Positions 13,183 to 52,211 of a stretch of DNA of 64,000 nt are shown in pieces. The stretch's first letter is position 1, and each line of letters opens with the position of its first letter. The notes under the pieces are model-generated. The model was not told where the DNA came from. It was given only the letters and a program-made list of their open reading frames with translations, and made no database searches. A program made the translations under genes and the position numbers. The stretch is taken from contig CAZIWB010000010.1 of NCBI GenBank assembly GCA_964542655.1, positions 137,533 to 201,532 on the forward strand. Direction: 5' to 3'. This stretch comes from an uncultured Cellvibrionaceae bacterium. GTDB lineage: Bacteria > Pseudomonadota > Gammaproteobacteria > Pseudomonadales > Cellvibrionaceae.

Positions 13183-13745
13183 TACTTGATTTCCACGCCG
13201 TCATCAACACCAGTTTCAAAAGCATTACCAGCGTGACCAGAAATTACAATCTTTTCATACTTTTCGAAGAAACCAGACGTAGGATATCCAGCCAGACGAT
13301 AGAAGAATGAAGTAGGCATGGTGCCAAGTGCAGTCTTGTACGAACGCACACGATCAATCTTATCCTTCTGCGCAAGGGCAAAGTCGTTCCGGCCTGCTTC
13401 AATCAGGGTAAGAATCTTAGCATAGGTGGATTGATCCAGATTAGGATTCTGTTCCATGATCCACTGAATAGAGGCCTGTGAACCTTCTTCGCCATAGCGG
13501 CTTTCGTTAGCCTTGGTAATCACTTCTTCAACCGCACTAGCCTGAAGCTTGGTTACGCCAAGGGCTTCCTTCAGCTTTGGTGCATACTGGCCAAGCACGT
13601 TACGCGATTGATCATGGGCCGCAATGATGCTTTGTTCATATGCGTTCGCAGTGTTGTTCGCAGACATATACGAACCGATACCCATGATGATTGCCAGAAC
13701 GAAAGCACCAACAATACCAAGACCAATAATAGAAGTTTTACTCAT
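13182..13745 (-). CDS. Membrane-anchored protein, LemA-like (tentative)
   Basis: N-terminal TM helix (IIGLGIVGAFVLAIIMGIG) followed by a ~160 aa soluble region; size and topology resemble LemA. Confidence 0.3.
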   Translation of the reverse strand: MSKTSIIGLGIVGAFVLAIIMGIGSYMSANNTANAYEQSIIAAHDQSRNVLGQYAPKLKEALGVTKLQASAVEEVITKANESRYGEEGSQASIQWIMEQNPNLDQSTYAKILTLIEAGRNDFALAQKDKIDRVRSYKTALGTMPTSFFYRLAGYPTSGFFEKYEKIVISGHAGNAFETGVDDGVEIK

Positions 13746-13757
13746 TATATAATTCCT

Positions 13758-14783
13758 TTAATTTCTAACAACAACGATACCGATGCCAATTGAAGCGATC
13801 AACCCAAGAATAATTGAGGTAATAATTGCCCATTGCGGTACGTCAATTTCGTTTTCAAGATATTTAAATTCTTCCATGGGTCTACGGATGTAGTGTTCCC
13901 TGATGTTTCTATATACAATATTCAATGTGGTTTGTCTATCTAAAACTTTAGATGCCAGCAATTCATTTCGCATGGCCACATTCACAATATCATTTTTAGA
14001 CCACGAAAACACCTTAACCCATTTGATTTCTGGATAATTTTCTGTACCAATTACTACGGTAACATCATTCTTTTTACCACCAATCCATGCCGCTTGTAGG
14101 GCATCACCATAGGATTCTTTTTGGTTGGTAATCACAGTAACAATGTTTACCTGTTTCTTAGCACCAAGCGTTCTAAGCTGGTTAGAGACACTTTCATTCC
14201 ATAGAGCCAGATCAGGAATCTTTACCCCTACAGGGATAACCCTATCGATCCGGTGATAATCATATGGTGCTGGATAGTTTGGGATTTTACCCTTGTACGC
14301 ATTAGCCAGCGCAAGATGGAACAAGCTATCTGGTGCCGCTTTAACATAATTCGTGTAGTTACGCTCAAACGCCACAGGCTCATACATCTTAACCTGTGCC
14401 CAACGTTCCGGCATTTCAGACCCGCGCCTATCTACACGGGAAATATAGAAAGGCCCTACCGTAGTGTCAACTCGCCAATCCCAATCATTGGTATGTTCGT
14501 AGCAAGTATGACAAGTTCTATGTCCGTTTTTGTCTGTTGAACACATGCAATCATATGAGTGTTCACAGGAAGTTCTTTCCTGTTCCTTGGCGTTTATGTA
14601 TCCATTCACGATATTCGTGTCACCCATCGCGCCCATGGTAGATGAGAAGTACACAATACATGACAGAATCATAGGAACCACTGCCTGCACCGCCATTTCT
14701 GGAATTGTAATTTTGTGATGAAAATAATATTTCATGACCAGCATGACAAGAATCGCTGGCAAAAAGATTAAAAATAAAGTCAT
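13758..14783 (-). CDS. Large membrane protein (N-terminal and C-terminal TM segments, Cys/His-rich ectodomain)
   Basis: TM segments at both termini; cluster SCEHSYDCMCSTDKNGHRTCHTCYEH. Confidence 0.45.
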   Translation of the reverse strand: MTLFLIFLPAILVMLVMKYYFHHKITIPEMAVQAVVPMILSCIVYFSSTMGAMGDTNIVNGYINAKEQERTSCEHSYDCMCSTDKNGHRTCHTCYEHTNDWDWRVDTTVGPFYISRVDRRGSEMPERWAQVKMYEPVAFERNYTNYVKAAPDSLFHLALANAYKGKIPNYPAPYDYHRIDRVIPVGVKIPDLALWNESVSNQLRTLGAKKQVNIVTVITNQKESYGDALQAAWIGGKKNDVTVVIGTENYPEIKWVKVFSWSKNDIVNVAMRNELLASKVLDRQTTLNIVYRNIREHYIRRPMEEFKYLENEIDVPQWAIITSIILGLIASIGIGIVVVRN

Positions 14784-14835
14784 TCACGTCCCCTATTAAA
14801 TATGAATGACCGTATACTTCAAATCATTTCATATG

Positions 14836-15270
14836 TCAAATAGAATCCAAGTTGGTGTGTCTAACAGTCACGGTTTTTTCGCCGCGCAACCTAGCACCTA
14901 ATATTTCATGATGTCCATCGGAAACGTAGTGTTTGCCTTTATGGGTGATCACATGGGCGTTTTTAAATCCGCCATTGATTTTGTTGTGGAGTTTTTCGCC
15001 ATCGCTAACCTTAACAAAGGGCTGTGTGGCGTGTAAGTCTTTTATGTGGAAGGTGGTTTTCTTGTCTTCTATCTTGTGCCCATGTGTTTCGTATTTTTGC
15101 ACGGCAGAACCGATAGAGGAAGGATGACCACGTTTTGAGAGGGGAATGTAAGTGTGTTTATCTGCCTTTAGGCCAGAACCACGATAAGACTTGTTACCGT
15201 GTATTCTGGCCATCCTTAAGGCTGCTTCCTGTCCCGTCTTTTCTGCTAGAAACTCTTTGAAACTTATCAT
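14836..15270 (-). CDS. Putative packaged internal protein with T4-type capsid-targeting N-terminus; basic His/Lys-rich, with a weak ParB-like DGHHEILGARLRG motif
   Basis: The N-terminus MISFKEFLAEK matches the T4 internal-protein capsid-targeting sequence (MKTFKEFLAE / MKTYQEFIAE), including a gp21-type FLAE cleavage context. Confidence 0.45.
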   Translation of the reverse strand: MISFKEFLAEKTGQEAALRMARIHGNKSYRGSGLKADKHTYIPLSKRGHPSSIGSAVQKYETHGHKIEDKKTTFHIKDLHATQPFVKVSDGEKLHNKINGGFKNAHVITHKGKHYVSDGHHEILGARLRGEKTVTVRHTNLDSI

Positions 15271-15277
15271 CTACTAT

Positions 15278-15595
15278 TTATTGAAAAACGTAGAGCAAGC
15301 TTTCTATGAAGGTAATAGCATTAGCACGTGCCTTACGCGGAAACGTAGCAGTTTCAACTTCTGCTACGTCATGCTGAACAACAATGCTGTCTGGTGATGT
15401 GATAAGCCTAGCAGTATATTGGCTGGTAGGCGTACTGAAAAATAAGACTTCCTCCCCCACAATAGTTCTTTTTTCTATAACTAAAAAAGGAAAGGCATCC
15501 TCATTCAACTCATTGCGGTATACTTGTAGTTGCAACCCTGTTACCCCCATGAAATGGGCAGGGGTATTTTTGGTTACCCCTGCCCTATTGATCAA
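15278..15595 (-). CDS. Hypothetical protein
   Basis: 105 aa ORF. Confidence 0.35.
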   Translation of the reverse strand: MINRAGVTKNTPAHFMGVTGLQLQVYRNELNEDAFPFLVIEKRTIVGEEVLFFSTPTSQYTARLITSPDSIVVQHDVAEVETATFPRKARANAITFIESLLYVFQ

Positions 15596-17435: not shown

Positions 17436-17510
17436 TGGTGGAGCATAAGGGAATCGAACCCTTAACTGAAGCTTGCAAAGCTACCGTGTTCCCGTTAGCA
17501 CCAATGCCCC
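17436..17510 (-). tRNA. tRNA-Ala (TGC)
   Basis: Acceptor GGGGCAT with a G3:U70 pair, loop TTTGCAA, T-arm AGGGTTCGATTCCCTT. Confidence 0.75.
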
Positions 17511-17535
17511 ACGTGCATCTTATTTATACAAATTT

Positions 17536-18420: not shown

Positions 18421-18496
18421 TGGCTCCCCGAACAGGATTCGAACCTGTAACCGTCCGGTTAACAGCCGGAAGCTCTGCCAGTTGAGCTATCGGGGA
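18421..18496 (-). tRNA. tRNA-Asn (GTT)
   Basis: Acceptor TCCCCGA/TCGGGGA, anticodon arm TCCGG-CTGTTAA-CCGGA, T-arm ACAGGTTCGAATCCTGT. Confidence 0.8.
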
Positions 18497-18571
18497 ATAT
18501 ATGTGTATTTATACAGAATAGATTAGAGGTTGTCAATAACAAAAATGGTTATACTGGAATTAAATGATATT

Positions 18572-33722: not shown

Positions 33723-34143
33723 CTATTCAACAATACTTAGAAAAGCTTACCCGTACCGTGCACTCGCACGATTTCTATAAGGGGAGTCATCCCTAAAGCG
33801 AACGTTTTGTAAGGTGACTAGCCTCATTTGTCGTTCCATTGGAGGATAAGCTTATCTAAATATTGACAAGCCACGTGTTTCAAGATACCGGGCGAACTAA
33901 AGCCTAACACTTAGTTCCTTTCGCTGACAATGCTTATACTTTATTGTATAAAGCCTGTCAAGACCTAATTTATTCTAACCTACGATGTCAAAGAGCATCT
34001 TATTTATCTTTTTATATCACTATAAATTGAGAAAAACAAGATTTATTTGCGGGAATCTGAGAATAATTTATTCCTTTTCGCCGCGTTGTTGAAGCACTTA
34101 TAGGCGCATCGTCCAACCCTGTCAACATATAAATACACATAAT

Positions 34144-34995
34144 ATGAAAAAATTCAGAGATTTTCTAGAGAACCCAAACCCTCCGGTTATTATCTATGCG
34201 TTGCCTACGCATGGGGCGCATTCTGTTGCGCCTACATCTAACCCATTAGATGAAGCTAAGTTTAGCAGCAAAGAAGAATACCATAGAGAAAACGATAATT
34301 CTCACATTGGCAGCCATGATGAAGTTGACAACCATGTTAGCGAAGGTGCTGATAAACATATCGGCAAACTTAAATATGAACAAAAAACTGCCGTCAATGC
34401 ATATTCTACATCATCTTATCATCTTAACCACCATCTCATATCTAAACACACAGGAAAGGAAGATACTGCTAATAAATACTTCGGCAAGGAACACCATGAG
34501 AGATTAGAGGGAATCGACCATCATCTATCTAATGCCATAAAGTCATCCAAACTTAAAAAGGACATGCACTTATATCATGGCACCACGGGTTTCAATCCGG
34601 GTAAAGAGGCCGCTAAACACCCTGAAGGCCATATCAAGCTACCTGCATATACATCCACTACACATGACAAAGTTATAGCTACAGATTTCAGCAATCCAAC
34701 AAAAGTGAAAAGTATGGATAGAGAATCACACATCATAAAAATACATGCGAAGAAAGGCACACACGCATTACACGTTGCCCATCATTCTCGCTTTGAACAT
34801 GAGAAAGAAACCATTATACATAAAAATGCTGTTCTGAAAATTCACAAGAAACCAGATGTCATTGAACATACAATGAAAGAAAGGGATTCTTTGGACAATC
34901 TAACTGGCAAAACCTTTAAAAGAAGAACCTATGTTTGGCACGCACATGTTGTAGATGACGGTACCACTGACAACAAGAAAGAGAAAAAGAAATGA
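34144..34995 (+). CDS. His-rich protein with a T4-type capsid-targeting N-terminus and an ADP-ribosyltransferase-like motif triad (H-G-T / S-T-T / E-x-E)
   Basis: N-terminus MKKFRDFLE (compare T4 MKTYQEFIAE). LYHGTTGF, then AYTSTTHDK about 27 aa later, then EHEKETII about 40 aa after that, which is R/H-S-E ART spacing. A late-promoter-like TATAAATA sits at 34131-34138. Confidence 0.5.
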   Translation: MKKFRDFLENPNPPVIIYALPTHGAHSVAPTSNPLDEAKFSSKEEYHRENDNSHIGSHDEVDNHVSEGADKHIGKLKYEQKTAVNAYSTSSYHLNHHLISKHTGKEDTANKYFGKEHHERLEGIDHHLSNAIKSSKLKKDMHLYHGTTGFNPGKEAAKHPEGHIKLPAYTSTTHDKVIATDFSNPTKVKSMDRESHIIKIHAKKGTHALHVAHHSRFEHEKETIIHKNAVLKIHKKPDVIEHTMKERDSLDNLTGKTFKRRTYVWHAHVVDDGTTDNKKEKKK

Positions 34996-35900
34996 TCAAA
35001 AAATTCAGAGATTTTATTAAACCAGTTCCACCGATTGTCATCACCGCTGTTCCTGTGCATGGTTCACACGCACAAGAGATTGTTAAGCCACCTGTCAAGC
35101 CTACGGTGATCACTGCCGATCCTACACATGGTAAGCATTCAGAACCTAAAGATGTCAATGAAGAAAAATTTGTTAAAGACAAATATATGCTTCATCACGA
35201 AAATGGGCATATTGGTGATGAAGAAACTACACACAAACACGTAGAAGACGAGGCAGATAAGCATATTAATGCGCTTACACAAAAACAGAAAGATGCCGTT
35301 AAATCTTATACTGGACATTCTAGAGATTTAAATCATAATCTTATTGAGAAAGCAAAGGGTAACCATCACTATCTTGATGACGAAACCAATTTCACAAAGC
35401 ACGGCGCAGCTAGAATTAGAGAGACAGAAAAACATCTTGCTAAAGCCATGAAGAAATCCAGAATCAAAAAGGATATTGTTCTATATCACGGCACCAAGGG
35501 GTACAATCCGGGTAAGGAAGCAGCAAAACACCCAGAAGGGCATATCAGACTTCCTTCTTATACGTCTACATCACATCATAAGAAAAATGCATTTAATTTT
35601 GCCGATCCAAGGGCTAGCAAGAAACAATCAAGAGAAACACACATATTAAGGATTCATGCTAAAGCTGGTACACATGCCATCCACGTTTCGCAACACTCGG
35701 AATTTCCCGAAGAAAGAGAAACAATATTACACAAAAATACTGTTTTAAAAATTCACAAGAAACCAGATGTCATTGAACACGAACACGAAGTATATAAACC
35801 CGGACAATGGGATAAGGAAAAGATCAAGAGAAGAACCTACGTTTGGCACGCACATGTGGTAAGCCAGCACCACGATGATGACGATAAATCTGACAAGTAA
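34992..35900 (+). CDS. Paralog of 34144..34995: His-rich, capsid-targeting-like N-terminus, ART-like motifs
   Basis: MIKKFRDFIK; LYHGTKGY, SYTSTSHHK, PEERETIL; many blocks shared with the upstream paralog (HIxxIHAKxGTHAxHV, KIHKKPDVIEH, KRRTYVWHAHVV). Confidence 0.5.
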   Translation: MIKKFRDFIKPVPPIVITAVPVHGSHAQEIVKPPVKPTVITADPTHGKHSEPKDVNEEKFVKDKYMLHHENGHIGDEETTHKHVEDEADKHINALTQKQKDAVKSYTGHSRDLNHNLIEKAKGNHHYLDDETNFTKHGAARIRETEKHLAKAMKKSRIKKDIVLYHGTKGYNPGKEAAKHPEGHIRLPSYTSTSHHKKNAFNFADPRASKKQSRETHILRIHAKAGTHAIHVSQHSEFPEERETILHKNTVLKIHKKPDVIEHEHEVYKPGQWDKEKIKRRTYVWHAHVVSQHHDDDDKSDK

Positions 35901-35904
35901 TTTA

Positions 35905-35932
35905 TAAGGGGGCTTTCGCCCCCTTATTTTTA
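35905..35932. terminator. Rho-independent terminator hairpin (bidirectional context)
   Basis: TAAGGGGGC-TTTC-GCCCCCTTATTTTTAA, between convergent genes. Confidence 0.6.
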
Positions 35933-36271
35933 ATATCGCTTATGTGCTTTCCGGTTAATATCTCGGCGCTGAATACTCATGCCCGCGCCCCAAATATCCA
36001 AGTAGAAATCATGCAATTCATCATCGCGAACCGTATCCTTGAAATTCGAATACGTAAGGTCTTCTGCGATATAATCCACCATGAATGCCGCGAATTCAGC
36101 GCGGGTAATCAGGATACGAAAGCGGTAGTCATGATTTTCCCATTCAAGGATATCTCGACCCGGAAAAGTATCCTCTAGCCATTCACGCTTGCGCGAACGG
36201 ACCATAAACATGTTCGTATCTTCCTTGCTCTGCACAACAGACACGAAACCAGTGTTAAAACAAATCCACAT
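35930..36271 (-). CDS. Hypothetical protein
   Basis: 113 aa ORF. Confidence 0.4.
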   Translation of the reverse strand: MWICFNTGFVSVVQSKEDTNMFMVRSRKREWLEDTFPGRDILEWENHDYRFRILITRAEFAAFMVDYIAEDLTYSNFKDTVRDDELHDFYLDIWGAGMSIQRRDINRKAHKRY

Positions 36272-36285
36272 AATATAATTCCTTT

Positions 36286-36312
36286 CAAAAGTTTAGAGGG
36301 GCAATCTTATAT
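36286..36312 (-). terminator. Hairpin terminator downstream of 36329..37072
   Basis: AGAGGGG-CAATCTTATATCA-CCCCTCT. Confidence 0.4.
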
Positions 36313-36328
36313 CACCCCTCTTGATTTG

Positions 36329-37072
36329 TCAATCTTTTTTATCTTCATATGAAGCGATTAGCTTCTTTTTTCTTTCATGAAAATTCTTGTGTAGCTCTTC
36401 CCAATTCTTCAATCCAGAGTGCTTAAAGAGATGATGGATATGTTTGTCATCAATCTTCTTAACGGCTTCTAGACCATGATGTTCTGCCTCTGGATGCTCT
36501 TTGAAGGCCTTATTAAAGAGATGAGAAGACTTATAGCCATGTTCACCCCTTAGGCTCTTCTTTTCGTCTATGTCGTGCCCGTAATCCTTATGGCCACCCT
36601 GTGCACGGAAATGGAATGCGCCGCCATGATCGATAGAATGAAGATCACCAGTTTTCTTATGGTGCATCACATTGCCTAGATCGTGTGGCCCTAGGATATC
36701 CCAATTCTTCGTTAGGATACCAGCATGATACATCTTTCCAAGCTGCTTGGCGTGCTTCTTAGAAATCTTATCAGTATGCTTACTGTTCACGCTTTCAAGG
36801 TGTTCATTCCACTTTGATTTAATATGCGTGCCACCATGCATTTCTGGCTTAACTGTTTTTATTCCCATGTGATGGTAAATCTTACCGGTTAGGGCTTCAG
36901 TCTTGGCTTGTTCTGGATTGTGGTACTTCTTCACATAGAATTTATGGCCCTTAGAGTTGGTGTGGATACCACCATCATTAGAGCCATATTGAGTACCTTC
37001 AACTGGTGTTAGCTTTTCTTCTGCTATGAAGTCTTTAAATTTTTTCATAACAGTATTTAGCTTTTCATTCAC
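36329..37072 (-). CDS. His-rich protein with a capsid-targeting-like N-terminus (third member of the family)
   Basis: N-terminus MKKFKDFIAEE (FIAE is identical to the T4 capsid-targeting cleavage context); very His-rich (about 35 His). Confidence 0.45.
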   Translation of the reverse strand: MNEKLNTVMKKFKDFIAEEKLTPVEGTQYGSNDGGIHTNSKGHKFYVKKYHNPEQAKTEALTGKIYHHMGIKTVKPEMHGGTHIKSKWNEHLESVNSKHTDKISKKHAKQLGKMYHAGILTKNWDILGPHDLGNVMHHKKTGDLHSIDHGGAFHFRAQGGHKDYGHDIDEKKSLRGEHGYKSSHLFNKAFKEHPEAEHHGLEAVKKIDDKHIHHLFKHSGLKNWEELHKNFHERKKKLIASYEDKKD

Positions 37073-37618: not shown

Positions 37619-38962
37619 TCACTTTTTCTTAGTAAGTGAATTTACGATGGCTTGGCCTTGTTCCGTTTGGGTAAAGGCTTCTACCATACCGGCTAGCTGC
37701 GTCCCGCCACTAGGGCTAAAGATCGAACCAATACCGCTTACACCTTCTGCAACAGTTCCGCCGTTGGCAATAACCTTAACATCTGCTTCCGCAATAGCCT
37801 TGGCCATTTCCTTACCAACTTCACCATTCGTCTTGATTTCTTCAAGCTTGACGAGATAGGTCTGGTAACCTTCATTCTCACCAATTTCCTTAGCAAGTGT
37901 AATCTGTGCATTAACAGGAGCGAGAAGGATAAGCTTTTCTGATTCAGCGTTAGCCTTACCGATTGCCTCAATACCTTCAGCATCCTTCTTAACCGCTTCA
38001 AGCTTACCTTCTGCTACCGTGATGGTAGTTTTCTTGTCAGTATCAGCGGCAATCACATTAACTGCCTGTTCCTGCTTAGCCTTAACTTCAGCAACTTCCT
38101 TAGCGATTTCTGCCTGCTTGGTTTCCTGAACACGACGAACCGCCATGTCCTTTTCTGTGGTAATGGCATTCTGGATAAGAACTTCCTGATCAGAACGTTC
38201 CTTGGCAATACCAACTTCCTTGTCCTTTTCAGCGTTGCGAATGCCTACCTGCTGTTCTGCCTGTGTGCGGCTAAGTGCAACATCTCGGCTTGCCTCAATT
38301 TCCTTCATTTCAGCAACACGGTTGTTTTCCGCAACCTTTTCGCGGCTTTCCTTATCAATACGTGACTGTTCCTTAGCCATGATATTGCGGATAACACGGG
38401 AATCATTACTATCGTTAAGGTTCATGAATTCAATCGTCTTGGCAGTCTTAACACCCCATTCCGAAAGCTGTTCATCAACTTCGTTGGTAAATTCTTCACC
38501 AAGCTTAGCACGATCCTGCATAATGTTTTCAAGTTCGTTGGTGCCAAGGATACGACGAACCGCGCCTTGAAGAACGTTTGAAAGCTGTTCCTGAAGTTCT
38601 GTGAAATTGCTTACCCGTTCCGCTGCCTGATTGGGATCATGGATACGGAAGAATGCCGCGATATCTACCACAAAAGGAAGACGGCCCTTATCGTATGCCT
38701 CATAGTTTTTCAGATTGATATCAAAGATGCTAAGCGGATATGAAACATGTTCGATGCCAAACTTAGGAACCCAAGACGGGATTGCGTAATAAACGTTGCC
38801 ATTAGTCGCACCAGAACCATAAGAAACTTTCTTATTAGCATACTGGACGATGTGTACCTGATTGGTAGGAACAACCCTACGCCAGACAAAGGCCAGTAGA
38901 AGAGGGAGAATAGCAAAACAAAATACGGCCAGTGCCGCAAATCCAATAATCATCATATTCAT
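37619..38962 (-). CDS. SPFH/band-7 (flotillin-like) membrane protein
   Basis: N-terminal TM segment, SPFH-like core (PLSIFDINLKNYEAYDKGRLPFVVDIAAFFRI...) and a long Ala/Glu/Lys-rich coiled coil. Confidence 0.6.
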   Translation of the reverse strand: MNMMIIGFAALAVFCFAILPLLLAFVWRRVVPTNQVHIVQYANKKVSYGSGATNGNVYYAIPSWVPKFGIEHVSYPLSIFDINLKNYEAYDKGRLPFVVDIAAFFRIHDPNQAAERVSNFTELQEQLSNVLQGAVRRILGTNELENIMQDRAKLGEEFTNEVDEQLSEWGVKTAKTIEFMNLNDSNDSRVIRNIMAKEQSRIDKESREKVAENNRVAEMKEIEASRDVALSRTQAEQQVGIRNAEKDKEVGIAKERSDQEVLIQNAITTEKDMAVRRVQETKQAEIAKEVAEVKAKQEQAVNVIAADTDKKTTITVAEGKLEAVKKDAEGIEAIGKANAESEKLILLAPVNAQITLAKEIGENEGYQTYLVKLEEIKTNGEVGKEMAKAIAEADVKVIANGGTVAEGVSGIGSIFSPSGGTQLAGMVEAFTQTEQGQAIVNSLTKKK

Positions 38963-41183: not shown

Positions 41184-43481
41184 ATGGCAATCCAAGTAAG
41201 TCCCGGTATTGTGGCGAATGAGGTTGATCTAACAACCACAATCCCTGCAATGTCCACAACAGAAGGTGCTATTGCTGGTGTATTTAATTGGGGACCAATT
41301 GGAAAATATACCCTAGTAGATTCTGAAATCAGCCTAGCAAAAGCTTATGGTACCCCAAATGATGGGAACTATGAGACATTTTTCGCTGGCGCAAACTTCC
41401 TAGGGTACGGTAATGCGTTATACGTGTCAAGAGCGGCAGTGACTACAGGCAAATCCGTTACATTTTCTACAACTCTATCAGGAAACACTACTTTAACCAC
41501 AAGCAACACGGCAACTACGGTTGTTCCGGGTATGGCTGTTTATGGTAATGGTATTGAGCCTAACACCACAGTAACCAATGTTACTGCAAATAGCTCTGTA
41601 AGCACAATTATTCTTTCAAATGCTGCTTCTGCTACTGGTACAGAAAATATCAACTTCTTTGAGGCTGATTATTCCTTCAACGCTATTGCTAACAGCACAA
41701 ACGTTGTGGATAGAGCAAAAAACATCATCCGCAATGCAGACGAAATTGAAGATTTCGATGGTTCGCCGGGTGTTGAATTTGTTGCTAAGTATCCGGGTGA
41801 ATTTGGTAACTCACTAAGAGTTTCTGTGTGTGGTTCTGATCAACAGTTTGCTTCTTTTGTAAATCCATATGCACTGGTTGTCAACTCTTCAGTTCAAACA
41901 AACACATCAGTAATCCCTAGCAAAGCTGGTATCTCAATTGAAGTTAATGCTACTACAGCTAACGTTTTTATTGCTAACTCTGCTACGCTTCCTTTCTCTG
42001 ACACATATATCGTGGCAGGCGAAATTAAATCTAGCATCTCTACGGGTGACTATATCGTAGTTGGTAACAACACCATTGGCCGTCAATCTCTGAAGGTTAA
42101 GAGTGTGTCTGCGCTTGCTAACACCAACCCGCTATCTCCTACAGGTGAAATATATTTCAATATTGAATTTGATCAGCCTTACAAGCTTTCTACTGCATTC
42201 TCTTCTAATCTAATCAATAGAACATGGGAATTCAATAACGTTCTAGCAACGGCACCGGGCACTTCAGATGAAGTTATTAATGCAGGCAGCAATGTGTGTG
42301 ACCAGATCAGTGTTGTTGTGGTTGACGAAAAGGGCGCATTTAGCGGTACACCGGGCACAATTCTAGAAGCATATTCTAATCTATCCAGAGTACCAAACGC
42401 TAAGACACCAGATGGTGAATCTAACTACTTCAAGAGCGTGATTAATAACAGATCACCTTACATTTGGGCAGTTAATGACCTACCTGATATGCCTAGCGCA
42501 AATGCTTCCACAGTTGCAAATGTAACTACAGATGCACCATACTCTAAATCTTTCGTTGGTGGTACTACCGGTTCTACTGAATCGTCAATTTCCATGGGCG
42601 AACTAGCTGCTGCATACGATCTATTTAAAGATGATACTTCAGTTGACGTTTCCCTAATTATTACTGGTAAGGCTATCGGTTTCGATGGTGCACAGTCGGT
42701 AAATTACCTTGTGGATAACGTTTCCGAAATCAGAAAAGATTGTGTTGTATTCGCATCACCGCCAAGAAATGCAGTTGTTAATAACAAGGGCAACGAGGCA
42801 CAGGACATTAAAATTTGGAGAGGAAACCTACGTGCTTCTTCTTATCTGTTCCTAGATTCTGGTTATAAATACCAGTATGACAAGTACAATGATGTTTATC
42901 GTTGGGTACCTCTAAATGGCGATATCGCTGGTCTAACAGCTAGAACAGACGATACAAACGATCCATGGTTTTCACCGGCTGGTTTTAATAGAGGCCAGAT
43001 CAAGAATATCATTAAGCTATCTTGGAATCCAAATCAGGCAGATAGAGACATTCTGTATAAGGATGACATCAATCCAGTTGTTACGTTCCCCGGTTCTGGC
43101 ACTGTTCTATACGGTGATAAAACCGCACTTGGTAAAGCAAGCGCATTTAGCAGAATTGGTGTTAGAAGACTATTCATCATTCTTAGAAAGACAATTTCTA
43201 GGGCTGGTAGAAATATGTTGTTCGAATTCAACGATGATTTCACCAGATCACAGTTCAAGAATCTCGTAGAGCCTTATCTAAGAGATGTAATGGGCAGAAG
43301 GGGTATCACCGATTTCCTAGTTGTGTGCGACGAAACAAACAACACACAGGAAGTTATCGATAGCAACAGATTTATTGGTGACATTTATGTTCGTCCAAAT
43401 AGATCAATCAACTTCATTACATTGAACTTCGTAAGCGTAAGAAGCGGTCAAGAGTTCACCGAAGTAGTAGGCCAATTCTAA
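41184..43481 (+). CDS. g18: Tail sheath protein (T4 gp18 family)
   Basis: 765 aa; N-terminal AIQVSPGIVANEVDLT and C-terminal conserved sheath blocks; followed by g19 and g20 in the T4 order. Confidence 0.8.
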   Translation: MAIQVSPGIVANEVDLTTTIPAMSTTEGAIAGVFNWGPIGKYTLVDSEISLAKAYGTPNDGNYETFFAGANFLGYGNALYVSRAAVTTGKSVTFSTTLSGNTTLTTSNTATTVVPGMAVYGNGIEPNTTVTNVTANSSVSTIILSNAASATGTENINFFEADYSFNAIANSTNVVDRAKNIIRNADEIEDFDGSPGVEFVAKYPGEFGNSLRVSVCGSDQQFASFVNPYALVVNSSVQTNTSVIPSKAGISIEVNATTANVFIANSATLPFSDTYIVAGEIKSSISTGDYIVVGNNTIGRQSLKVKSVSALANTNPLSPTGEIYFNIEFDQPYKLSTAFSSNLINRTWEFNNVLATAPGTSDEVINAGSNVCDQISVVVVDEKGAFSGTPGTILEAYSNLSRVPNAKTPDGESNYFKSVINNRSPYIWAVNDLPDMPSANASTVANVTTDAPYSKSFVGGTTGSTESSISMGELAAAYDLFKDDTSVDVSLIITGKAIGFDGAQSVNYLVDNVSEIRKDCVVFASPPRNAVVNNKGNEAQDIKIWRGNLRASSYLFLDSGYKYQYDKYNDVYRWVPLNGDIAGLTARTDDTNDPWFSPAGFNRGQIKNIIKLSWNPNQADRDILYKDDINPVVTFPGSGTVLYGDKTALGKASAFSRIGVRRLFIILRKTISRAGRNMLFEFNDDFTRSQFKNLVEPYLRDVMGRRGITDFLVVCDETNNTQEVIDSNRFIGDIYVRPNRSINFITLNFVSVRSGQEFTEVVGQF

Positions 43482-44058: not shown

Positions 44059-45675
44059 TTGGCACAACTTTTTGGTTTTGAATTTGGTAAGAGTAAGGAA
44101 GAAGAGAAGGCTAAAATTGCGTCGTTTGTCCCTAAAGAGGATGATGACGGCGCAGTTTTAGTACAAGGTTCTGGTGTATATGGCACCTACGTAGACTTTG
44201 ATGGTTCAATTAGGTCTGAAGCAGAACTAGTATCTAAGTACAGGGAAGTTTCTAATCACCCTGAAGTTGATATGGCGATTGATGACATCGTTAACGAGAT
44301 GATCACACAGGAACCAGAAGATTCCCCTGTAGAAATTATTCTTGATAAAGTAGAACAGTCAGACAAGGTTAAAAAGCTTATCATTGAAGAATTTGACAAC
44401 GTTCAAAGACTTTTGGAGTTCCACACACTTTCTTATGAAATCGTAAGAAGGTGGTATGTGGATGGTAGGCTTTATTACCATGCGGTGACGGACGAAGCTA
44501 ACCCTAAGCGTGGAATTATAGAACTTCGTTATATCGATCCTAGAAAAATTAGAAAAATCAAGGAAATTAAGAAAGAAAAGCTTGCTGGCGCAATTGATAT
44601 TAATGTGCCCGTGTCTGAATATTTCATTTACAACGAAAGAGGATTTGCAAAAACATCTGGTACTGCTGCAACCCCAACAAACAATAATGTTGGTGGTATT
44701 AAAATTGCGAAAGATTCCATCGTACATTGTACGTCTGGTCTGGTTTCGGATAACGGTGATCTTGTAAAGGGCTATCTACACAAAGCCATGAAGCCGCTTA
44801 ATCAGTTGCGTTCCATGGAAGATTCTCTTGTGATTTACAGAATTTCTAGAGCGCCGGAAAGACGTATTTTCTACATTGACGTTGGTAACCTACCGAAATC
44901 AAAAGCAGAACAATATGTGCGCGACCTACAGATAAGATTTAAAAACAAGCTGGTCTACGATTCAGCCAGTGGTGAAATCCGCGATGATCGTAAATTTATG
45001 ACCATGCTTGAAGATTTCTGGCTTCCCCGTTCTGGTGGTGGTCGTGGTACTGAAATCACTACTCTACCGGGTGGACAAAACCTATCAGAATTAGATGACG
45101 TGGTTTATTTCCAAAGGAAGCTATATAAATCTCTTAACGTTCCTATCACTCGCCTAGAGCCTGAAACAACATATTCCCTAGGTAGAGCAACAGAAATCAC
45201 AAGAGACGAAGTTAAATTTGCCAAGTTCATCAACAGACTAAGAAATAAATTTTCAGCACTGTTCCTTTCTATCCTAGAAAAGCAATTGGTGTTGAAAAAT
45301 ATTATGTCTCTTGAAGATTGGGAAGAAATTAAACACAACGTTCGTTTCCAATATGCCGAAGACAACTATTACGCAGAACTTAAGGAAACAGAAATCCTTA
45401 GAGATAGAGTTTCTATGCTTCGTGATATGGATGATTATATCGGCAAATACTGGTCGCACGAAAATGTTAGAAGAAACATTCTTAAGCAGAGTGACGAAGA
45501 CATAGAGGAAAACGATAAGCAGATTGCGGAAGAAAAGGATGATCCACAGTTCAACCCGCCACTTGATCCTAATATGGATGGTGGTCCGGGTGGTATGGAT
45601 CAAAATGATGACGGTCAAGCAGATTTTAACCCAAATCCACAACCGCTAGATAGCAATCCTCCACAACCTAAATAA
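44059..45675 (+). CDS. g20: Portal vertex protein (gp20 family)
   Basis: 538 aa; position between the tube gene and the prohead core/protease genes; acidic, Pro-rich C-terminus. Confidence 0.8.
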   Translation: MAQLFGFEFGKSKEEEKAKIASFVPKEDDDGAVLVQGSGVYGTYVDFDGSIRSEAELVSKYREVSNHPEVDMAIDDIVNEMITQEPEDSPVEIILDKVEQSDKVKKLIIEEFDNVQRLLEFHTLSYEIVRRWYVDGRLYYHAVTDEANPKRGIIELRYIDPRKIRKIKEIKKEKLAGAIDINVPVSEYFIYNERGFAKTSGTAATPTNNNVGGIKIAKDSIVHCTSGLVSDNGDLVKGYLHKAMKPLNQLRSMEDSLVIYRISRAPERRIFYIDVGNLPKSKAEQYVRDLQIRFKNKLVYDSASGEIRDDRKFMTMLEDFWLPRSGGGRGTEITTLPGGQNLSELDDVVYFQRKLYKSLNVPITRLEPETTYSLGRATEITRDEVKFAKFINRLRNKFSALFLSILEKQLVLKNIMSLEDWEEIKHNVRFQYAEDNYYAELKETEILRDRVSMLRDMDDYIGKYWSHENVRRNILKQSDEDIEENDKQIAEEKDDPQFNPPLDPNMDGGPGGMDQNDDGQADFNPNPQPLDSNPPQPK

Positions 45676-47388: not shown

Positions 47389-48075
47389 ATGAAACTTATA
47401 ACAGAAATCACAGAAGATATTGAGTACATCACAGAAGCCAAGGAAGACGGTAAAAAGAACCTTTATATTGAAGGAATCTTTCTACAGTCTGCTATCAAGA
47501 ATAGAAACGGAAGAATCTATCCTGAAGGCGTGATGGATAAAGAAGTGGCGCGCTACATGAAAGAATCTGTTGATAGAAAGACAGCGGTTGGTGAATTAAA
47601 TCACCCGCCGTCACCATCGATCAATCTAGATAGAGTTTCCCATAGAATTGTTTCACTTAAGAAAGAAGGAACAAACTATATTGGTAAGGCTCTTATTACT
47701 TCTACTCCCATGGGCAATATTGTTAAGGGTCTTATGGAATCCGGTGTACAGCTTGGCGTTTCATCTAGAGGTATGGGCACACTAAAACCAAACAAACAAG
47801 GAATTAACGAAGTTCAAGAGGATTTTCGTCTAGTTACCGCTGCCGATGTGGTTAGCGATCCTAGCGCACCTTCTGCTTGGGTTAATGGCATCATGGAAAA
47901 CGTAGACTGGATTTATGACGATAAAATGGGATGGAAGTCCGTTGATATTGTTGAAGCCATTGTTTCAGAAACAAAGGGCAAAATCGAATTAGCTATCAGA
48001 GAAAAGATGCTACAAGAAAGAAAAATTCAGCTTTTTGAGAATTTTATGGCTAAAATTTCAAAGCGCGCAATTTAA
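47389..48075 (+). CDS. g21: Prohead core protease (gp21 family)
   Basis: GELNHPPSPSINLDRVSH matches the T4 gp21 active-site region GELGHP. Confidence 0.75.
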   Translation: MKLITEITEDIEYITEAKEDGKKNLYIEGIFLQSAIKNRNGRIYPEGVMDKEVARYMKESVDRKTAVGELNHPPSPSINLDRVSHRIVSLKKEGTNYIGKALITSTPMGNIVKGLMESGVQLGVSSRGMGTLKPNKQGINEVQEDFRLVTAADVVSDPSAPSAWVNGIMENVDWIYDDKMGWKSVDIVEAIVSETKGKIELAIREKMLQERKIQLFENFMAKISKRAI

Positions 48076-48123: not shown

Positions 48124-49368
48124 ATGGCAGTTGATTTTAATAAAATGTCAGATGAAGAAATTCTAGAATACGTAGAAAATCTTTCTGATGAAGAATTCGA
48201 AAATCTTGACGAAGGCGCGAAGGCGTTCCTAGACAAGTACCTAGAAGAAGCATTTGACGAAGACGAAGGCGAAGAAGAAATTTCTGAAGACGCTGAAGAA
48301 GTCACTGAAAGTGAAGAACTAGAAGAAGGCGAAGAACTAGAAGAAGGTACTGAAGCTGCCAATACTCTTAAGCCAAAGGGTGGTTCATCCGCTGGCGATT
48401 CCAGAGCGGAACAGCTTGCAACTTTCACTTCTCTTATGTCTCAACTAGGCAAGGAAGACCTTTCCAAGTTCCTTAATCAAGCACTGGAACAGATCGGCAA
48501 GGAAGCTGACAAGACACCGGGTACACCTGAAGGCAATAGAGCTACTATTACAGCTAAGCCATCTGCGGCTAAGGGTTCTGGTAAGGCAACACCATCCGAA
48601 CCAATGAAGAAGCTAACCAAAGAAGATATCGATGAAATCTTTGCTGGTGACGAAGTTATTTCTGAAGAAACCAAAGAAAAGGCTACCGTAATTTTTGAAG
48701 CTGCACTTCATACAAGATCAATTCTTGAAGAAGCTAAGCTACAGGAAGCTTTTGACGCTAAGATTGCAGAACTAGAAGAAAGCTACGACGAAAAGCTTGA
48801 AACAGAAATCGAATCTATCACTGAAACGCTAATTGAGAAGATCGATAGCTACATGGATTACACTGTCCAAAACTGGCTAGATGAAAACGAAGTACAGATT
48901 ACCAACTCACTTAGAGCGGAAATTGCTGAAGACTTCATTGCTGGCCTTAGAAACCTATTCGTAGAAAGCTACGTAGAAGTTCCTGAAACTAAGCTTGATA
49001 TTGTTGAAGAACTACAGGCACAGGTTGCTAGCCTTTCTGAAGAGCTATCCGCCGCTGTTGATCAGAACATTGAACTATCAAACATTGTTGCAGAATCATC
49101 CAGAGAAAACATCATTAATTCTATCTCCGAAGGCCTAACGGTATCCGAAACTGAAAAGCTTCGTACCCTAGCTGAAAGCGTTGAATTTTCTGATTCCGAT
49201 ACATTCACCAAGAAAGTAGGCATGATCAAAGAAAATTATTTCTCTGAAAAGAAAACACCTACAACCGGTCTGATTGTTGAAGAAATCGATGGTACAGATG
49301 CAGAAGTTAAGAACACAAATCCAACAATGGACAAGTATATTAACGCAATCTCTAAAAACATAAAATAA
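48124..49368 (+). CDS. g22: Prohead scaffold protein (gp22-like)
   Basis: 414 aa, very acidic and coiled-coil, with an EEGEELEEG repeat; lies between g21 and g23. Confidence 0.65.
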   Translation: MAVDFNKMSDEEILEYVENLSDEEFENLDEGAKAFLDKYLEEAFDEDEGEEEISEDAEEVTESEELEEGEELEEGTEAANTLKPKGGSSAGDSRAEQLATFTSLMSQLGKEDLSKFLNQALEQIGKEADKTPGTPEGNRATITAKPSAAKGSGKATPSEPMKKLTKEDIDEIFAGDEVISEETKEKATVIFEAALHTRSILEEAKLQEAFDAKIAELEESYDEKLETEIESITETLIEKIDSYMDYTVQNWLDENEVQITNSLRAEIAEDFIAGLRNLFVESYVEVPETKLDIVEELQAQVASLSEELSAAVDQNIELSNIVAESSRENIINSISEGLTVSETEKLRTLAESVEFSDSDTFTKKVGMIKENYFSEKKTPTTGLIVEEIDGTDAEVKNTNPTMDKYINAISKNIK

Positions 49369-49411: not shown

Positions 49412-50773
49412 ATGAATATTATTTCTGAAGACATCCAAAGAAAGTGGGAACCTGTTCTAGAACACTCCGCACTTCCTGAAATTAAGGATGCACACCGTAG
49501 AATGGTTACTGCAACCATCCTAGAAAATACTGAAAAGGCACTCAACGAAGGTCGTCAAGCAATGTCTGGCCAGAGCCTTCTAGGTGAAGCTGCACCAACT
49601 AACGCAACTGGTTCCAGCATCGATAATTTCGATCCGGTTCTAATTTCGCTAGTTCGTCGTGCGATGCCAAACCTTATTGCGTATGACCTTTGCGGCGTTC
49701 AGCCAATGACTGGTCCTACAGGCCTTATCTTCGCTATGCGTGCACGTTACGACAACCAGACAGGTACAGAAACCTTCTATAACGAAGTTGATACTGGTCA
49801 CTCTGCACGTGGTGGTGCAAACGCATCCGCAACTGCTGCTGGTTACTCTGCTGCTAACGTAGTTGGTGGTCAGGATTCCAACATCGGTACAGCACCGGGC
49901 GCTGCTAACAACGTTGGTGGTAACACATACAACTTTGCTGGTGGTATTGCTACTGCACTTGCTGAAGGCCTAGGTTCTAACACAACTGCTATCTTCCCTG
50001 AAATGGCATTCTCAATTGAGAAAGTTATTGTGGAAGCTAAGTCTCGTGCGCTAAAAGCTGAATACAGCCTCGAACTAGCACAAGACCTTAAAGCAATTCA
50101 CGGTCTGGATGCTGAAACAGAACTATCCAACATTCTTTCTGGTGAAATCCTTGCTGATATCAACCGTGAAGTTGTACGTTCTATCATCACCATTGCTAAG
50201 CCGGGTGCACAGGAAGGCACAGTAACTCCGGGCGTATTCAACCTAGACACCGATTCTAACGGTCGTTGGTCTGTTGAAAAGTTCAAGGGTCTTCTGTTCC
50301 AGATTGAACGCGAAGCTAACGCTATTGCTAAGGGTACCAGACGTGGTAAGGGTAATATCATCCTTTGCTCTTCGGATGTTGCTTCCGCTCTAGTTATGGC
50401 TGGTGTTCTAGACTACACCCCTGCACTTAATGGCAACAACGGTATCAATCCAGACGACACAGGCAATACCTTCATTGGTGTTCTTAATGGCCGTTTCAAG
50501 GTTTATATCGATCCGTATGCAGGCGCTAACTACCTAGTAGTTGGTTATAAGGGTTCTAGCGCATTTGATGCTGGTTTCTTCTATTGCCCATACGTTCCGC
50601 TACAGATGGTTCGCGCAGTTGATCCTGCTACCTTCCAGCCTAAGATTGGTTTCAAGACACGTTATGGCGTTGTTAACTCTCCTTACGCAGAAGGCGCTAC
50701 AGAAGGCCTAGGCCGTCTAGTACAGGATTCCAACGTGTACTACCGTAGAGTTATCGTACAGAACCTTCTCTGA
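49412..50773 (+). CDS. g23: Major capsid protein (gp23 family)
   Basis: 453 aa with a strong RBS; an AATAAATA late-promoter-like box at 49364-49371; canonical position after the scaffold gene. Confidence 0.85.
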   Translation: MNIISEDIQRKWEPVLEHSALPEIKDAHRRMVTATILENTEKALNEGRQAMSGQSLLGEAAPTNATGSSIDNFDPVLISLVRRAMPNLIAYDLCGVQPMTGPTGLIFAMRARYDNQTGTETFYNEVDTGHSARGGANASATAAGYSAANVVGGQDSNIGTAPGAANNVGGNTYNFAGGIATALAEGLGSNTTAIFPEMAFSIEKVIVEAKSRALKAEYSLELAQDLKAIHGLDAETELSNILSGEILADINREVVRSIITIAKPGAQEGTVTPGVFNLDTDSNGRWSVEKFKGLLFQIEREANAIAKGTRRGKGNIILCSSDVASALVMAGVLDYTPALNGNNGINPDDTGNTFIGVLNGRFKVYIDPYAGANYLVVGYKGSSAFDAGFFYCPYVPLQMVRAVDPATFQPKIGFKTRYGVVNSPYAEGATEGLGRLVQDSNVYYRRVIVQNLL

Positions 50774-50794: not shown

Positions 50795-50818
50795 AAAGGG
50801 GGCTTCGGCCCCCTTTTT
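50795..50818. terminator. Strong bidirectional rho-independent terminator
   Basis: AAAGGGGGC-TTCG-GCCCCCTTTTT between g23 (+) and the homing-endonuclease-like gene (-). Confidence 0.75.
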
Positions 50819-52211
50819 ATTGCAATACAAATGTGGCGGTTCCGCTATTCCATATTTTAGGAATATCAAGAATGCCCATTACATCATTCTCTGATAGTGT
50901 ATTATCAAAATCCTTGAATTTATTTTTCATGAATTGTGTCCTAGAAACTCTTTTCTCGCCGTTCACAACATACCAATATGACGGGCGATTTTCTGCTATT
51001 TTAATAAACCCATTCTTAACATATACATCACCGTAAGAATAGCACTTATCCGCGTAAGTGACAATACTGCCTTCATTTAATTTCCTGAAATACTTTAGTA
51101 TCTTACTAAATGACCCAATGACAGATGTATTTAATTTGTTAGCAAATCTGATTAGTTCCCATTCGTAGTTTTTATTAAACCTAGGCTTACCAAAAGTCAT
51201 AACAGAAACCAACTCACCAGAATGATATACACCTATAGATATACTAGATGTCGTATCTCCTTGTATATGGTTGTCATTAAGGAATTGCTTAGCGGTGGTT
51301 CTATCTATAATTTGAACTATACACTTTCTAGCATATATCCGCCTATCAGTAACACCCAAATTATGGGAAATAATAGATTTAATTACCTCTGGTTTGGTTT
51401 TCCAATCATCACTCCATAGATGAAATAATTTAATTCCCTTCTCTTGACATAGAGAAGTTTTATCATAGTGTGACGTTTTTGGTTTAAATTTATCCGTATG
51501 GAAATATACCCCATTATATTCTATAGCATATCCCAATTCAGGAACATAGATATCAATCTCTTTACCTATTATTGATCTATTATTAGTCAATACTTCTTTA
51601 TTGGTAATTGACCGCACAAAATCAAGAATTTCTAATTCCTCTTTCGATACGAAAGATTTTTCTCTTTCATATGAATTGGCTGGCCGCATTTCGATGCCGT
51701 GCTTTCTCATGAAAATGGATAGAGTTGATTTAGAAGTTCCTAATTGTCTCGCAATCAATTCAAGAGTATCACCACTATCATATAGTGTCTGAAGATCATT
51801 CTTATTTTCAAGAATTTTCATAACCTTATATGATGACTGATTGTATTTAACACTAGGAATCCTATGCTTTTCAATCCATTTATTAACAGGGGTGACGGAT
51901 ACCCCTAATTCACCCGCAATGACATCTTTAGACTTGCCTAAATTAATTCTCTGATCATAAAGCCAATCTCTATTACTAAGCTTTTCTAACACCCCTTGTG
52001 GTAGTTTATTCTTACCAGTTTGGTTTCTTTTATTGGCGATAGAAGAAGTTTCCTTGTGACTTCTTCTCTCTATTCCGTGTTCATTTAACCAGTTCCTAAC
52101 AGTAGGATTAGACGTGTTAAATTCTCGCGCCAAAGCACTTATAGAATAGCACTGGTCGATATACAAAGATAACAACACATCCCTGCTAGGAACTTTAATT
52201 TTATTAGCCAT
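50817..52211 (-). CDS. Homing-endonuclease-like protein: three tandem HTH modules plus a Vsr/DUF559-like nuclease motif (paralog of 1..1165)
   Basis: Three repeats of xxxxIAxELxxSxxTVxxWxxKHxI; EIDIYVPELGYAIEYNGVYFH; C-terminal RIYARKCIVQ...NHIQG. Inserted right after g23, where T4 has a freestanding homing endonuclease. Confidence 0.5.
   Translation of the reverse strand: MANKIKVPSRDVLLSLYIDQCYSISALAREFNTSNPTVRNWLNEHGIERRSHKETSSIANKRNQTGKNKLPQGVLEKLSNRDWLYDQRINLGKSKDVIAGELGVSVTPVNKWIEKHRIPSVKYNQSSYKVMKILENKNDLQTLYDSGDTLELIARQLGTSKSTLSIFMRKHGIEMRPANSYEREKSFVSKEELEILDFVRSITNKEVLTNNRSIIGKEIDIYVPELGYAIEYNGVYFHTDKFKPKTSHYDKTSLCQEKGIKLFHLWSDDWKTKPEVIKSIISHNLGVTDRRIYARKCIVQIIDRTTAKQFLNDNHIQGDTTSSISIGVYHSGELVSVMTFGKPRFNKNYEWELIRFANKLNTSVIGSFSKILKYFRKLNEGSIVTYADKCYSYGDVYVKNGFIKIAENRPSYWYVVNGEKRVSRTQFMKNKFKDFDNTLSENDVMGILDIPKIWNSGTATFVLQ

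Follow-up and report, generated by a model that had tools for sequence, protein, structure and literature searches.

We analysed a window of 64,000 nucleotides (contig CAZIWB010000010.1 of assembly GCA_964542655.1, positions 137,533 to 201,532 of the forward strand) that is filed under an uncultured Cellvibrionaceae bacterium. Its source is a previously undescribed T4-like myovirus of about 200 kb without close relative among sequenced isolates. Four proteins of the window share an N-terminus that resembles the capsid-targeting sequence (CTS) of the internal head proteins of phage T4: two tandem ADP-ribosyltransferases (ARTs; ART1 and ART2), an atypical kinase (KIN) and a protein that we tentatively describe as ParB/Srx-like (PARB). 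The reading that we favour, at a probability of roughly 0.7, is that the tag loads these proteins onto the scaffold of the prohead, that a gp21-type protease trims them, and that they are injected together with the DNA to act enzymatically on host targets. An earlier note on this DNA had proposed DNA-co-injected effectors similar in role to the T4 proteins Alt and IPI. This proposal is supported as far as computation allows; from the genes we infer late expression, packaging, cleavage sites, injection, enzymatic activity and targets.

All four open reading frames (ORFs) exist with the N-termini quoted in the earlier note, namely MKKFRDFLE(N) for ART1 (34144..34995, + strand, 283 aa), MIKKFRDFIK(P) for ART2 (34992..35900, +, 302 aa), MKKFKDFIAEE for KIN (36329..37048, -, 239 aa) and MISFKEFLAEK for PARB (14836..15270, -, 144 aa). 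When the whole window is translated in six frames, the core F-[KR]-[DE]-F-[IL] turns up exactly four times, in every case as residues 4-8 or 5-9 of one of these ORFs directly after the initiator Met. By chance 0.64 occurrences are expected anywhere in the window and about 0.001 at its approximately 110 N-termini. A looser N-terminal pattern matched the same four ORFs and otherwise only a spurious ORF of 49 aa. The motif is thus limited to the four proteins and lies far above the chance frequency at which unrelated proteins might have carried it. For KIN the quoted residues were right but not the gene start, which is the ATG at 37048 rather than the upstream GTG at 37072, because 30 homologues start at MK.F. 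The public version of KIN wrongly begins at this GTG (247 aa, 36329-37072, -), which hides the tag behind 8 extra residues. The public version of PARB is also wrong; it starts at Met20 (125 aa), such that the tag is lost.

For the CTS of the T4 proteins IPI, IPII and IPIII see Mullaney & Black 1996 and the reviews PMC9026906 and PMC3012670. In T4 the first 10 residues of IPIII are enough for packaging, and mutagenesis assigned targeting mainly to residues 4 and 7 of the tag and processing to residues 8 and 10 (review of Black's work, PMC9026906). The T4 sequences with which the tag had previously been compared were correct in part: IPII and IPIII begin with MKTYQEFIAE/A (slashes denote processing-type sites), but IPI begins with MKTFKEFTST...ITE/A and not with MKTFKEFLAE (its start in NC_000866 reads MKTFKEFTSTTTPVSTITE/A). 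That Alt is directed by the same tag is not so, since T4 Alt lacks the tag and is processed at ITE-6 and LTE-619 (PMC5694885). Phe is found at position 4 (5 in ART2) and at position 7 (8 in ART2) of all four proteins of the window. KIN (MKKFKDFIAE/E) and PARB (MISFKEFLAE/K) agree with the T4 tag at all four functional positions, ART1 and ART2 at the targeting positions only. Removal of the tag at L/I-x-E at residue 10, as suggested before, therefore fits KIN (IAE) and PARB (LAE) but not ART1, which has F-L-E, or ART2, which has no Glu there. A candidate site that closes a propeptide is nonetheless present in each protein (IAE8-10 in KIN, LAE8-10 in PARB, LDE35-37 in ART1 and VNE55-57 in ART2).

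The tag is conserved among relatives. F4 and E10 are kept in at least 90% of the KIN homologues; in 18 PARB homologues F4 and F7 reach at least 90% and E10 is invariant; and the equivalent of F4 is present in 101 of 113 members of the ART family. The gene order agrees as well: in T4, ipI and ipII/ipIII flank the tRNA cluster, while here the tRNA region (20 tRNA genes, 7.7 to 33.7 kb) is adjoined at one end by the ART-KIN group and has PARB close to its other end.

T4-type internal head proteins bearing a CTS work with a prohead protease and a scaffold, and both are encoded in the window. A gp21-type prohead core serine protease (47389..48075, +; Peptidase_S77, 135 bits; N-terminus MKLITEITEDIEYITE/A) would be responsible for trimming the tags, and the CTS is expected to dock onto a gp22-type scaffolding core protein (48124..49368, +; T4_CASP, 205 bits). 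Processing-type sites occur in gp23 (LGE/AA) and gp21 (ITE/A), and gp22 contains 30 [LIV]-x-E sites, all of which fits a protease of T4-like specificity. Further structural genes comprise the tail sheath (41184-43481), the portal (44059-45675) and the major capsid protein (49412-50773), besides a tail tube, gp46/47-like nucleases and the large terminase. The window has a G+C content of 39.9%. For its major capsid protein, identity to the proteins in 50,697 GenBank phage records does not exceed 67%; the best match is Stenotrophomonas phage DLP6, followed by cyanophage S-SKS1 and Sinorhizobium phiM12. Essentially no match exists at the nucleotide level, and a megablast of the locus against the same 50,697 phages returned nothing. 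Directly after the major capsid gene an HNH/homing-endonuclease-like gene (464 aa, 50817-52211, -) lies on the opposite strand. Near the cargo cluster there is a membrane-anchored SPFH/Band-7 protein of 447 aa (37619-38962, -); a Band_7 gene (L008 13901-14740) is also found near a kinase-like gene in a related contig.

ART1 and ART2 are 50% identical and translationally coupled, with the start of ART2 overlapping the stop of ART1 (ATGA). The three ART-like motifs that had been pointed out for this pair are present in both: LYHGT, YTSTT and E-[KR]-E-T-I at residues 143-147, 169-173 and 220-224 of ART1 (EKE at 220-222), and LYHGT, YTSTS and E-[KR]-E-T-I at 164-168, 190-194 and 241-245 of ART2 (ERE at 241-243). 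His does occupy the position of the catalytic Arg, since it aligns to the Arg of Certhrax and to that of T4 Alt. The impression that the pair matches no recognised family had to be given up, however. Both ARTs show homology to the catalytic domain of Alt from T4 and belong to the R-S-E ARTs of the Alt/VIP2 type, among which they form a divergent branch. Pfam PF03496 is matched with 38.1 bits by ART1 and 54.3 bits by ART2 (gathering score 23.4), and in the PDB the sequence matches Certhrax (2.8e-5). Within PHROGs we obtained only a weak match of ART2 to phrog_802 'Alt-like'. When a profile of 113 relatives was compared with T4 Alt by hhalign, Alt residues 416-592 aligned at 93.9% probability, pairing ITLYRSQ with HVYHGT, FVSTS with YTSTS and NEMEVILPRG with E-x-E-x-LLPRN.

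The Y-H-G-T sequence resembles the diphtheria toxin motif of the H-Y-E clade. Membership in this clade (diphtheria toxin/PARP) was ruled out on fold grounds: the ART-like fold for which the earlier note had suggested a check was found and is of the C3/VIP2 type, such that ART1 and ART2 have the R-S-E (C3/VIP2/Alt) fold despite this likeness. Their closest relatives by structure and sequence are Certhrax, C3, VIP2, iota-like toxins and Alt. Orthology to T4 Alt was ruled out as well, as only Alt residues 416-592 align, the proteins measure 283 and 302 aa compared to about 680 aa for Alt, and the N-terminus differs.

The ART family is large. An exhaustive profile search provided 2786 hits at E <= 0.001 and 204 at E <= 1e-30, while a word-indexed search had found 10 relatives only. 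Among the 50,697 GenBank phages, tblastn returned nothing for ART2 and only distant MuF-ART fusions for a second family member. In the alignment of 113 single-domain members, which has a mean column identity of 17%, G167 (next to the position of the missing Arg), S192 and E243 are invariant; E241 is present in 111 of 113 and T193 in 96 of 113.

Between tag and catalytic domain the ARTs carry additional sequence that we predict to be a longer propeptide. In ART1 it would comprise residues 1-37 (34144..34254, +), i.e. the CTS and one P-x-HG-x-H-S motif (residues 21-27), and end at LDE35-37/A. In ART2 it would comprise residues 1-57 (34992..35162, +), with two P-x-HG-x-H-[AS] motifs (21-27 and 44-50), and end at the candidate site VNE55-57/E. 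Across the family, the motif P-[IV]-h-I-T-A-x-P-x-H-G-x-H-[AS] follows the tag in 87 of the 113 members and occurs there one to three times. The alignment column at the propeptide end reads [LIVM]-x-E in 96 of the 113 members; the median propeptide length is 53 residues. In the structural model of ART2, residues 54-58 form the sole internal segment with a predicted local distance difference test score (pLDDT) below 50, while the first repeat (residues 11-20) reaches 95. Such a dip is what would be expected of a protease-accessible linker after a docked prodomain, comparable to the 19-residue propeptide of IPI.

Some family members are giant polyproteins, with profile matches in proteins of up to 2377 aa and up to 10 matched stretches. 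The largest, P0150 (2377 aa), is built from 9 complete ART modules. An [LIM]-x-E site lies no more than about 10 residues behind each of the first 8, after a W-x-V-x-P-H strand, and is lacking behind the C-terminal one. It is encoded on a 240-kb T4-like contig (L005 8001-15134, JGI 3300063269) with td, frd, nrdAB, rnh and phoH as neighbours. Another polyprotein is found at L009 11133-14264. The layout of ART modules separated by [LIM]-x-E suggests that the prohead protease cuts these chains into monomers. On the same L009 contig the tag and the start of a propeptide lie on a separate 69-aa ORF (MKFKDFVK..., 14952-15161, -) that abuts a 228-aa ART ORF (14266-14952, -); a split gene or a frameshift may account for this, as may a sequencing error.

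The earlier note had grouped the third and fourth proteins with the ARTs by their tag, which holds, but it missed the kinase fold of the one and the ParB-likeness of the other. KIN has an atypical kinase fold of the CtkA/PI4K-II/HipA-like type, for which we predict phosphorylation activity. It possesses a Gly-rich loop (GSNDGG, 22-27), Lys (K40), Glu (E51), catalytic Asp/Asn (H122-D123-x-x-N126) and a metal-binding Asp (D140 in IDHGG). More than 170 close homologues with 50-69% identity were found, mostly on contigs of 100-200 kb and none with a Pfam domain. GSNxGG, K40, E51, H122-D123-x-x-N126 and D140 are invariant. Searches at the sequence level gave no match in Pfam, NCBIfam or PDB, including HipA_C and PI3_PI4_kinase. 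In GenBank phages similarity to KIN reaches only about 28% identity and is confined to large proteins of myoviruses of about 90 kb. One of these is gp117 of Pseudomonas phage Dolphis (MT711888, L006 2051-5719; 1222 aa), which is annotated as 'ADP-ribosyltransferase' and combines a KIN-like region (about residues 650-862, approximately 28% identical to KIN) with a PF03496 ART (1119-1196). Since, in addition, an ART family gene lies within 10 kb of KIN in 32 of 72 IMG/VR loci (found via KIN), kinase and ART are linked both by neighbourhood and by fusion. A different fusion is seen in P0020 (338 aa), where a KIN homologue is joined to a GNAT acetyltransferase domain (PF13508/PF00583).

Directly downstream of KIN and on the same strand lies a gene for a 113-aa protein (35930..36271, -), which has no CTS and a His content of 2.7%. 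The same arrangement is found in 32 IMG/VR loci, the pair occurs also in L009 and L010, and in phage Dolphis the partner follows two genes after the KIN+ART fusion gene. The copy in the related 148-kb contig L001 has a weak match to NuiA-like (nuclease-inhibitor-like) proteins in Pfam. Ahead of the 113-aa gene we found a sigma-70-like promoter, TTGACA-17-TAAGAT, followed by a Shine-Dalgarno sequence (SD) (36304..36332, -; the promoter is a consensus match only). Judged from these sequence features, the 113-aa protein may be produced early and serve the injected kinase as partner or inhibitor.

For PARB several faint similarities point in the same direction. Its C-terminal domain contains DGHH (118-121), which is conserved as DGHH[AE] in 18 homologues, and a related tagged protein of 128 aa (L011 3535-3921) has the canonical ParB-type DGHHR. 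Among the 18 homologues 16 match PF23719 and 2 match ParBc_2, all near or below threshold, and a protein of Stenotrophomonas phage DLP_3 that is annotated as 'ParB-like nuclease domain protein' was matched by tblastn at 33% identity. Comparing the PARB profile with the PDB gave no significant match. On this basis we tentatively call the fourth protein ParB/Srx-like.

The tag also occurs on other proteins of related phages. In L001 an ART, a kinase, a ParB-like protein (MKTYKEFLAE) and a 188-aa protein are all tagged within 4 kb. The 188-aa protein is His-rich, starts with MKTFKQFLVE/SSYTPLYHGT and has sub-threshold matches to Tpt1/KptA and PARP, which by sequence makes it a possible second cargo of the ART superfamily. 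Adjoining this cluster is a gene for NADAR, which processes ADP-ribose (L001 coordinates 13171-13737 and 14228-14662, both -); neither the 188-aa protein nor the NADAR gene has a homologue in our window. Further tagged His/Lys-rich cargo on related IMG/VR contigs comprises, besides the 128-aa L011 protein, a 212-aa protein starting with MKTLSIFISE... and without Pfam match (L012 430-1068), a 572-aa HEAT/LRV-repeat protein (L034 628-2346) and tandem repeat proteins of 841 and 721 aa (L044 9174-11699 and 11701-13866). As judged from these genes, the tag is modular in this clade and placed on unrelated cargo.

The tagged proteins stand out by composition, too. That the four are strongly His-rich was confirmed, with 9.7-12.6% His compared to a window median of 1.9%; in addition they contain 12.5-16.7% Lys, have a pI above 9.2 and lack Cys. 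Family medians are 10.5% His for ART, 9.5% for KIN and 8.3% for PARB, with a median Cys content of 0 in all three; the ART family has about 11% Lys and a pI above 9. The same folds elsewhere are not His-rich (0% in the catalytic domain of T4 Alt, 0.9% in the KIN-like and 3.0% in the ART region of Dolphis gp117), which indicates that His enrichment follows the tagged cargo of this clade and not the fold. T4 IPI-III contain 1-2% His. A charge switch or metal binding are mere ideas for an explanation. Avoidance of Arg by the cargo, by which it would escape self-modification by an Arg-specific ART, was considered and found unsupported, as the PARB family contains 6.1% Arg.

Taken in steps, the favoured reading would run as follows. 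Two tandem 'mini-Alt' ARTs, an atypical kinase and a small ParB/Srx-like protein would be made late in infection from T4-late-type promoter boxes. During prohead formation the tag would bind the gp22 scaffolding core. The gp21-type protease would then cut KIN after IAE10 and PARB after LAE10, and the ARTs at the end of their longer propeptide with its P-x-HG-x-H motifs, i.e. after LDE37 in ART1 and after VNE57 in ART2. Trimmed cargo would remain beside the DNA in the head and pass with it into the next host, where the ARTs would transfer ADP-ribose from NAD+ to host targets and the kinase would phosphorylate host targets. The E-x-E motif suggests arginine as the acceptor, as for Alt.

Several observations weigh against this reading. 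With respect to processing, ART1 and ART2 lack a canonical [LI]-x-E that closes the 10-residue tag, and such a site is found in only 32 of the 113 family members. Furthermore, additional [LIV]-x-E sites lie inside the mature domains, such that the motif alone cannot define cleavage. The matches behind the ParB-like assignment of the fourth protein are sub-threshold. The remaining points concern the promoter boxes and the active site of the ARTs.

A T4-late-promoter-like box TATAAATA is indeed present upstream of ART1, but at 34128..34135 (+) and not at 34131-34138 as first reported. It lies 8 nt before the ATG with no SD between. Similarly, a CTAAATA box precedes the ATG of KIN by 5 nt (37054..37060, -) and an ATAAATA box that of PARB by 4 nt (15275..15281, -), both without SD. 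Under T4 rules boxes at 4-8 nt from the ATG would yield near-leaderless late mRNAs, which is unusual for T4-type late genes; gp18, gp22, gp23 and two other late genes of the window have [ACT]TAAATA 25-50 nt upstream plus a strong SD. Moreover, TATAAATA is not enriched in the window (7 found, 6.98 expected from shuffling). Enrichment was therefore rejected as late-promoter evidence; the placement of the boxes beside gene starts is non-random, and this placement alone is informative. The gene at 1215 shows the same close box without SD (upstream region 1191-1214). Among relatives the box is found at normal distance with an SD in L008 and L009 and in the close arrangement for PARB of L001. That boxes of the type [TCA]TAAATA stand ahead of cargo genes both here and in relatives, like those of gp18, gp22 and gp23, counts in favour of the reading. 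At its other end the ART1-ART2 unit is bounded by a strong intrinsic terminator (35904..35927, +; 10-bp GC-rich stem and T run) that follows the ART2 stop by 4 nt and faces the convergent genes. Two further TATAAATA boxes (17521-17528 and 18506-18513, both -) lie 10 and 9 nt upstream of tRNA-Ala (17436-17510) and tRNA-Asn (18421-18496), respectively, and may be late-type promoters with almost no leader.

Given that three independent gene starts share this odd layout, a signal at the nucleotide level is conceivable. The common N-terminus would then be a translation-initiation or mRNA element, or otherwise some different sorting or degradation signal, and the proteins would act in the producing cell only. 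We regard this as very improbable. The motif is kept at the protein level in hundreds of homologues despite differing codons and upstream regions, many of them with ordinary SDs. At the residues that matter for function it also agrees with the tag defined by experiment in T4, the protease motif follows it in KIN and PARB, and the matching protease and scaffold are encoded in the genome.

The last point against the favoured reading is the active site. R-S-E enzymes carry a catalytic, NAD-binding Arg in motif I, and at this position the ART family has His in 78, Ser in 33 and Thr in 2 of the 113 members, but never Arg (S 25, H 14, A 3 and T 1 in the IMG/VR loci). Without the canonical Arg the ART activity could be weak, altered or lost. 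If it were lost, the ARTs would still be packaged, with the ART fold as a mere scaffold, as bulk basic DNA-associated internal proteins like T4 IPII/IPIII that serve charge neutralisation, DNA condensation or help with ejection. The extreme composition (His about 10.5%, Lys about 11%, pI above 9) would suit such a role, relatives with 9 modules in one polyprotein suggest a stoichiometric rather than a catalytic dose, and inactive ART-fold domains do exist in C2-I, VIP2, iota toxin and anthrax LF. Those known dead domains have, however, lost the very residues that are retained here: with a mean column identity of only 17% across the family, the Ser of S-T-S and the second Glu of E-x-E never vary, the first Glu is found in 111 of 113 members, and the Gly beside the His/Ser position is likewise constant. 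The LLPRN stretch after E-x-E is moreover shared with the active T4 Alt. This strict conservation argues for an active enzyme, and we therefore consider a catalytically dead family unlikely.

Retained activity need not be that of Alt, since the missing Arg argues for an altered mode of NAD+ binding, a different substrate or low activity. The ARTs might be NAD+ glycohydrolases or modify DNA, RNA or a small molecule, e.g. a defence signal, with the His/Ser substitution reflecting the different substrate or binding mode. In line with this, the change of the NAD-phosphate-binding Arg is family-wide, a NADAR gene and a tagged ART-superfamily candidate adjoin the cargo cluster of the related phage, and R-S-E ARTs that act on nucleic acids or small molecules are known. 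On the other hand, the closest relatives (Certhrax, C3, VIP2, iota-like toxins and Alt) modify proteins, and E-x-E instead of Q-x-E is typical of arginine-specific enzymes, so that we give this alternative little weight as well.

Parts of these explanations could also hold jointly. Active His/Ser ARTs with an altered NAD+ mode or acceptor would be delivered in bulk, in relatives from the protease-separable polyproteins of 9 modules. Jointly with the tagged kinase and the untagged 113-aa protein behind its sigma-70-like promoter, they would make up a module for host takeover with a timed course of 'inject, act, then switch off'. The convergent gain of His and loss of Cys in three unrelated cargo folds would be a physical adaptation to the DNA-filled capsid. 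His could for example act as a charge switch that is protonated and DNA-bound in the head but neutral and released in the cytoplasm. As a whole we find this combination doubtful.

The concept of proteins delivered from the head is established from the T4 internal proteins, Alt and head-packaged ARTs (PMC9503650). With IPI, IPII and IPIII (MKTYQEFIAE/A, MKTFKEF...ITE/A) the four proteins share an aromatic residue in position 4 and another in position 7, in 2 of 4 cases also [IL]-x-E at residues 8-10, further a Lys-rich basic cargo, genes that flank the tRNA cluster, gp21 and gp22 homologues and a modular tag on unrelated cargo. In contrast to the T4 proteins, those of the window have the size of enzymes (144-302 aa) and catalytic folds that can be recognised, contain 8-12% instead of 1-2% His, and in case of the ARTs have a propeptide of 37-57 residues with P-x-HG-x-H repeats; the phage itself is only distantly related to T4. 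Alt, the head-packaged and injected RNA-polymerase ADP-ribosyltransferase of T4, has a homologous catalytic domain in which S-T-S, E-x-E and ILPR/LLPR align, and the life cycle predicted here from the genes follows the same course (packaging, gp21 trimming at [LI]-x-E, injection). It differs by its length of 682 aa with a long N-terminal region, the lack of an IP-type tag, the canonical Arg (ITLYRSQ) where the window family has His/Ser, and the absence of His from its catalytic domain.

The C3-like and binary-toxin ARTs (Certhrax, C3bot/C3stau, VIP2, iota/CPILE-a, C2-I; PF03496) share Y-x-S-T-S and E-x-E at the usual spacing, but the family of ART1 and ART2 has His or Ser for the motif-I Arg, and its proteins are phage-encoded, capsid-tagged and extremely His/Lys-rich instead of being secreted toxins. 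MuF-fused or polyvalent ARTs are delivered from the phage head along with other effector domains (Iyer, Aravind and colleagues; PMC9503650), which is the same delivery concept, and Dolphis gp117 fuses a KIN-like domain with a PF03496 ART. Here, by contrast, a 10-residue T4-type tag is placed on separate small proteins (protease-separable polyproteins in relatives) without fusion to MuF or portal. KIN, finally, keeps the Gly-rich loop, Lys, Glu, H-D-x-x-N loop and I-D-H-G-G metal-binding Asp of the CtkA, PI4K type II, HipA and CotH kinases but differs in being capsid-tagged, His-rich, paired with the 113-aa gene and without family match at the sequence level. A limited literature search returned no description of a tagged mini-Alt family with a His/Ser-S-E site or of its propeptide and polyprotein forms, and none of a tagged kinase together with a partner gene or of a cargo signature rich in His.

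If the favoured reading is true, the T4 capsid tag would be an old and general address label for enzymes throughout a large branch of uncultured T4-like phages, and injected effectors could be found in metagenomes by a simple sequence rule. The ARTs would represent a large Alt-like family that keeps S-T-S and E-x-E but never the Arg thought essential in this clade, and would thus test the need for that residue. A capsid-delivered kinase with its partner and a His-rich, Cys-free cargo would raise testable questions about proteins that travel with DNA.

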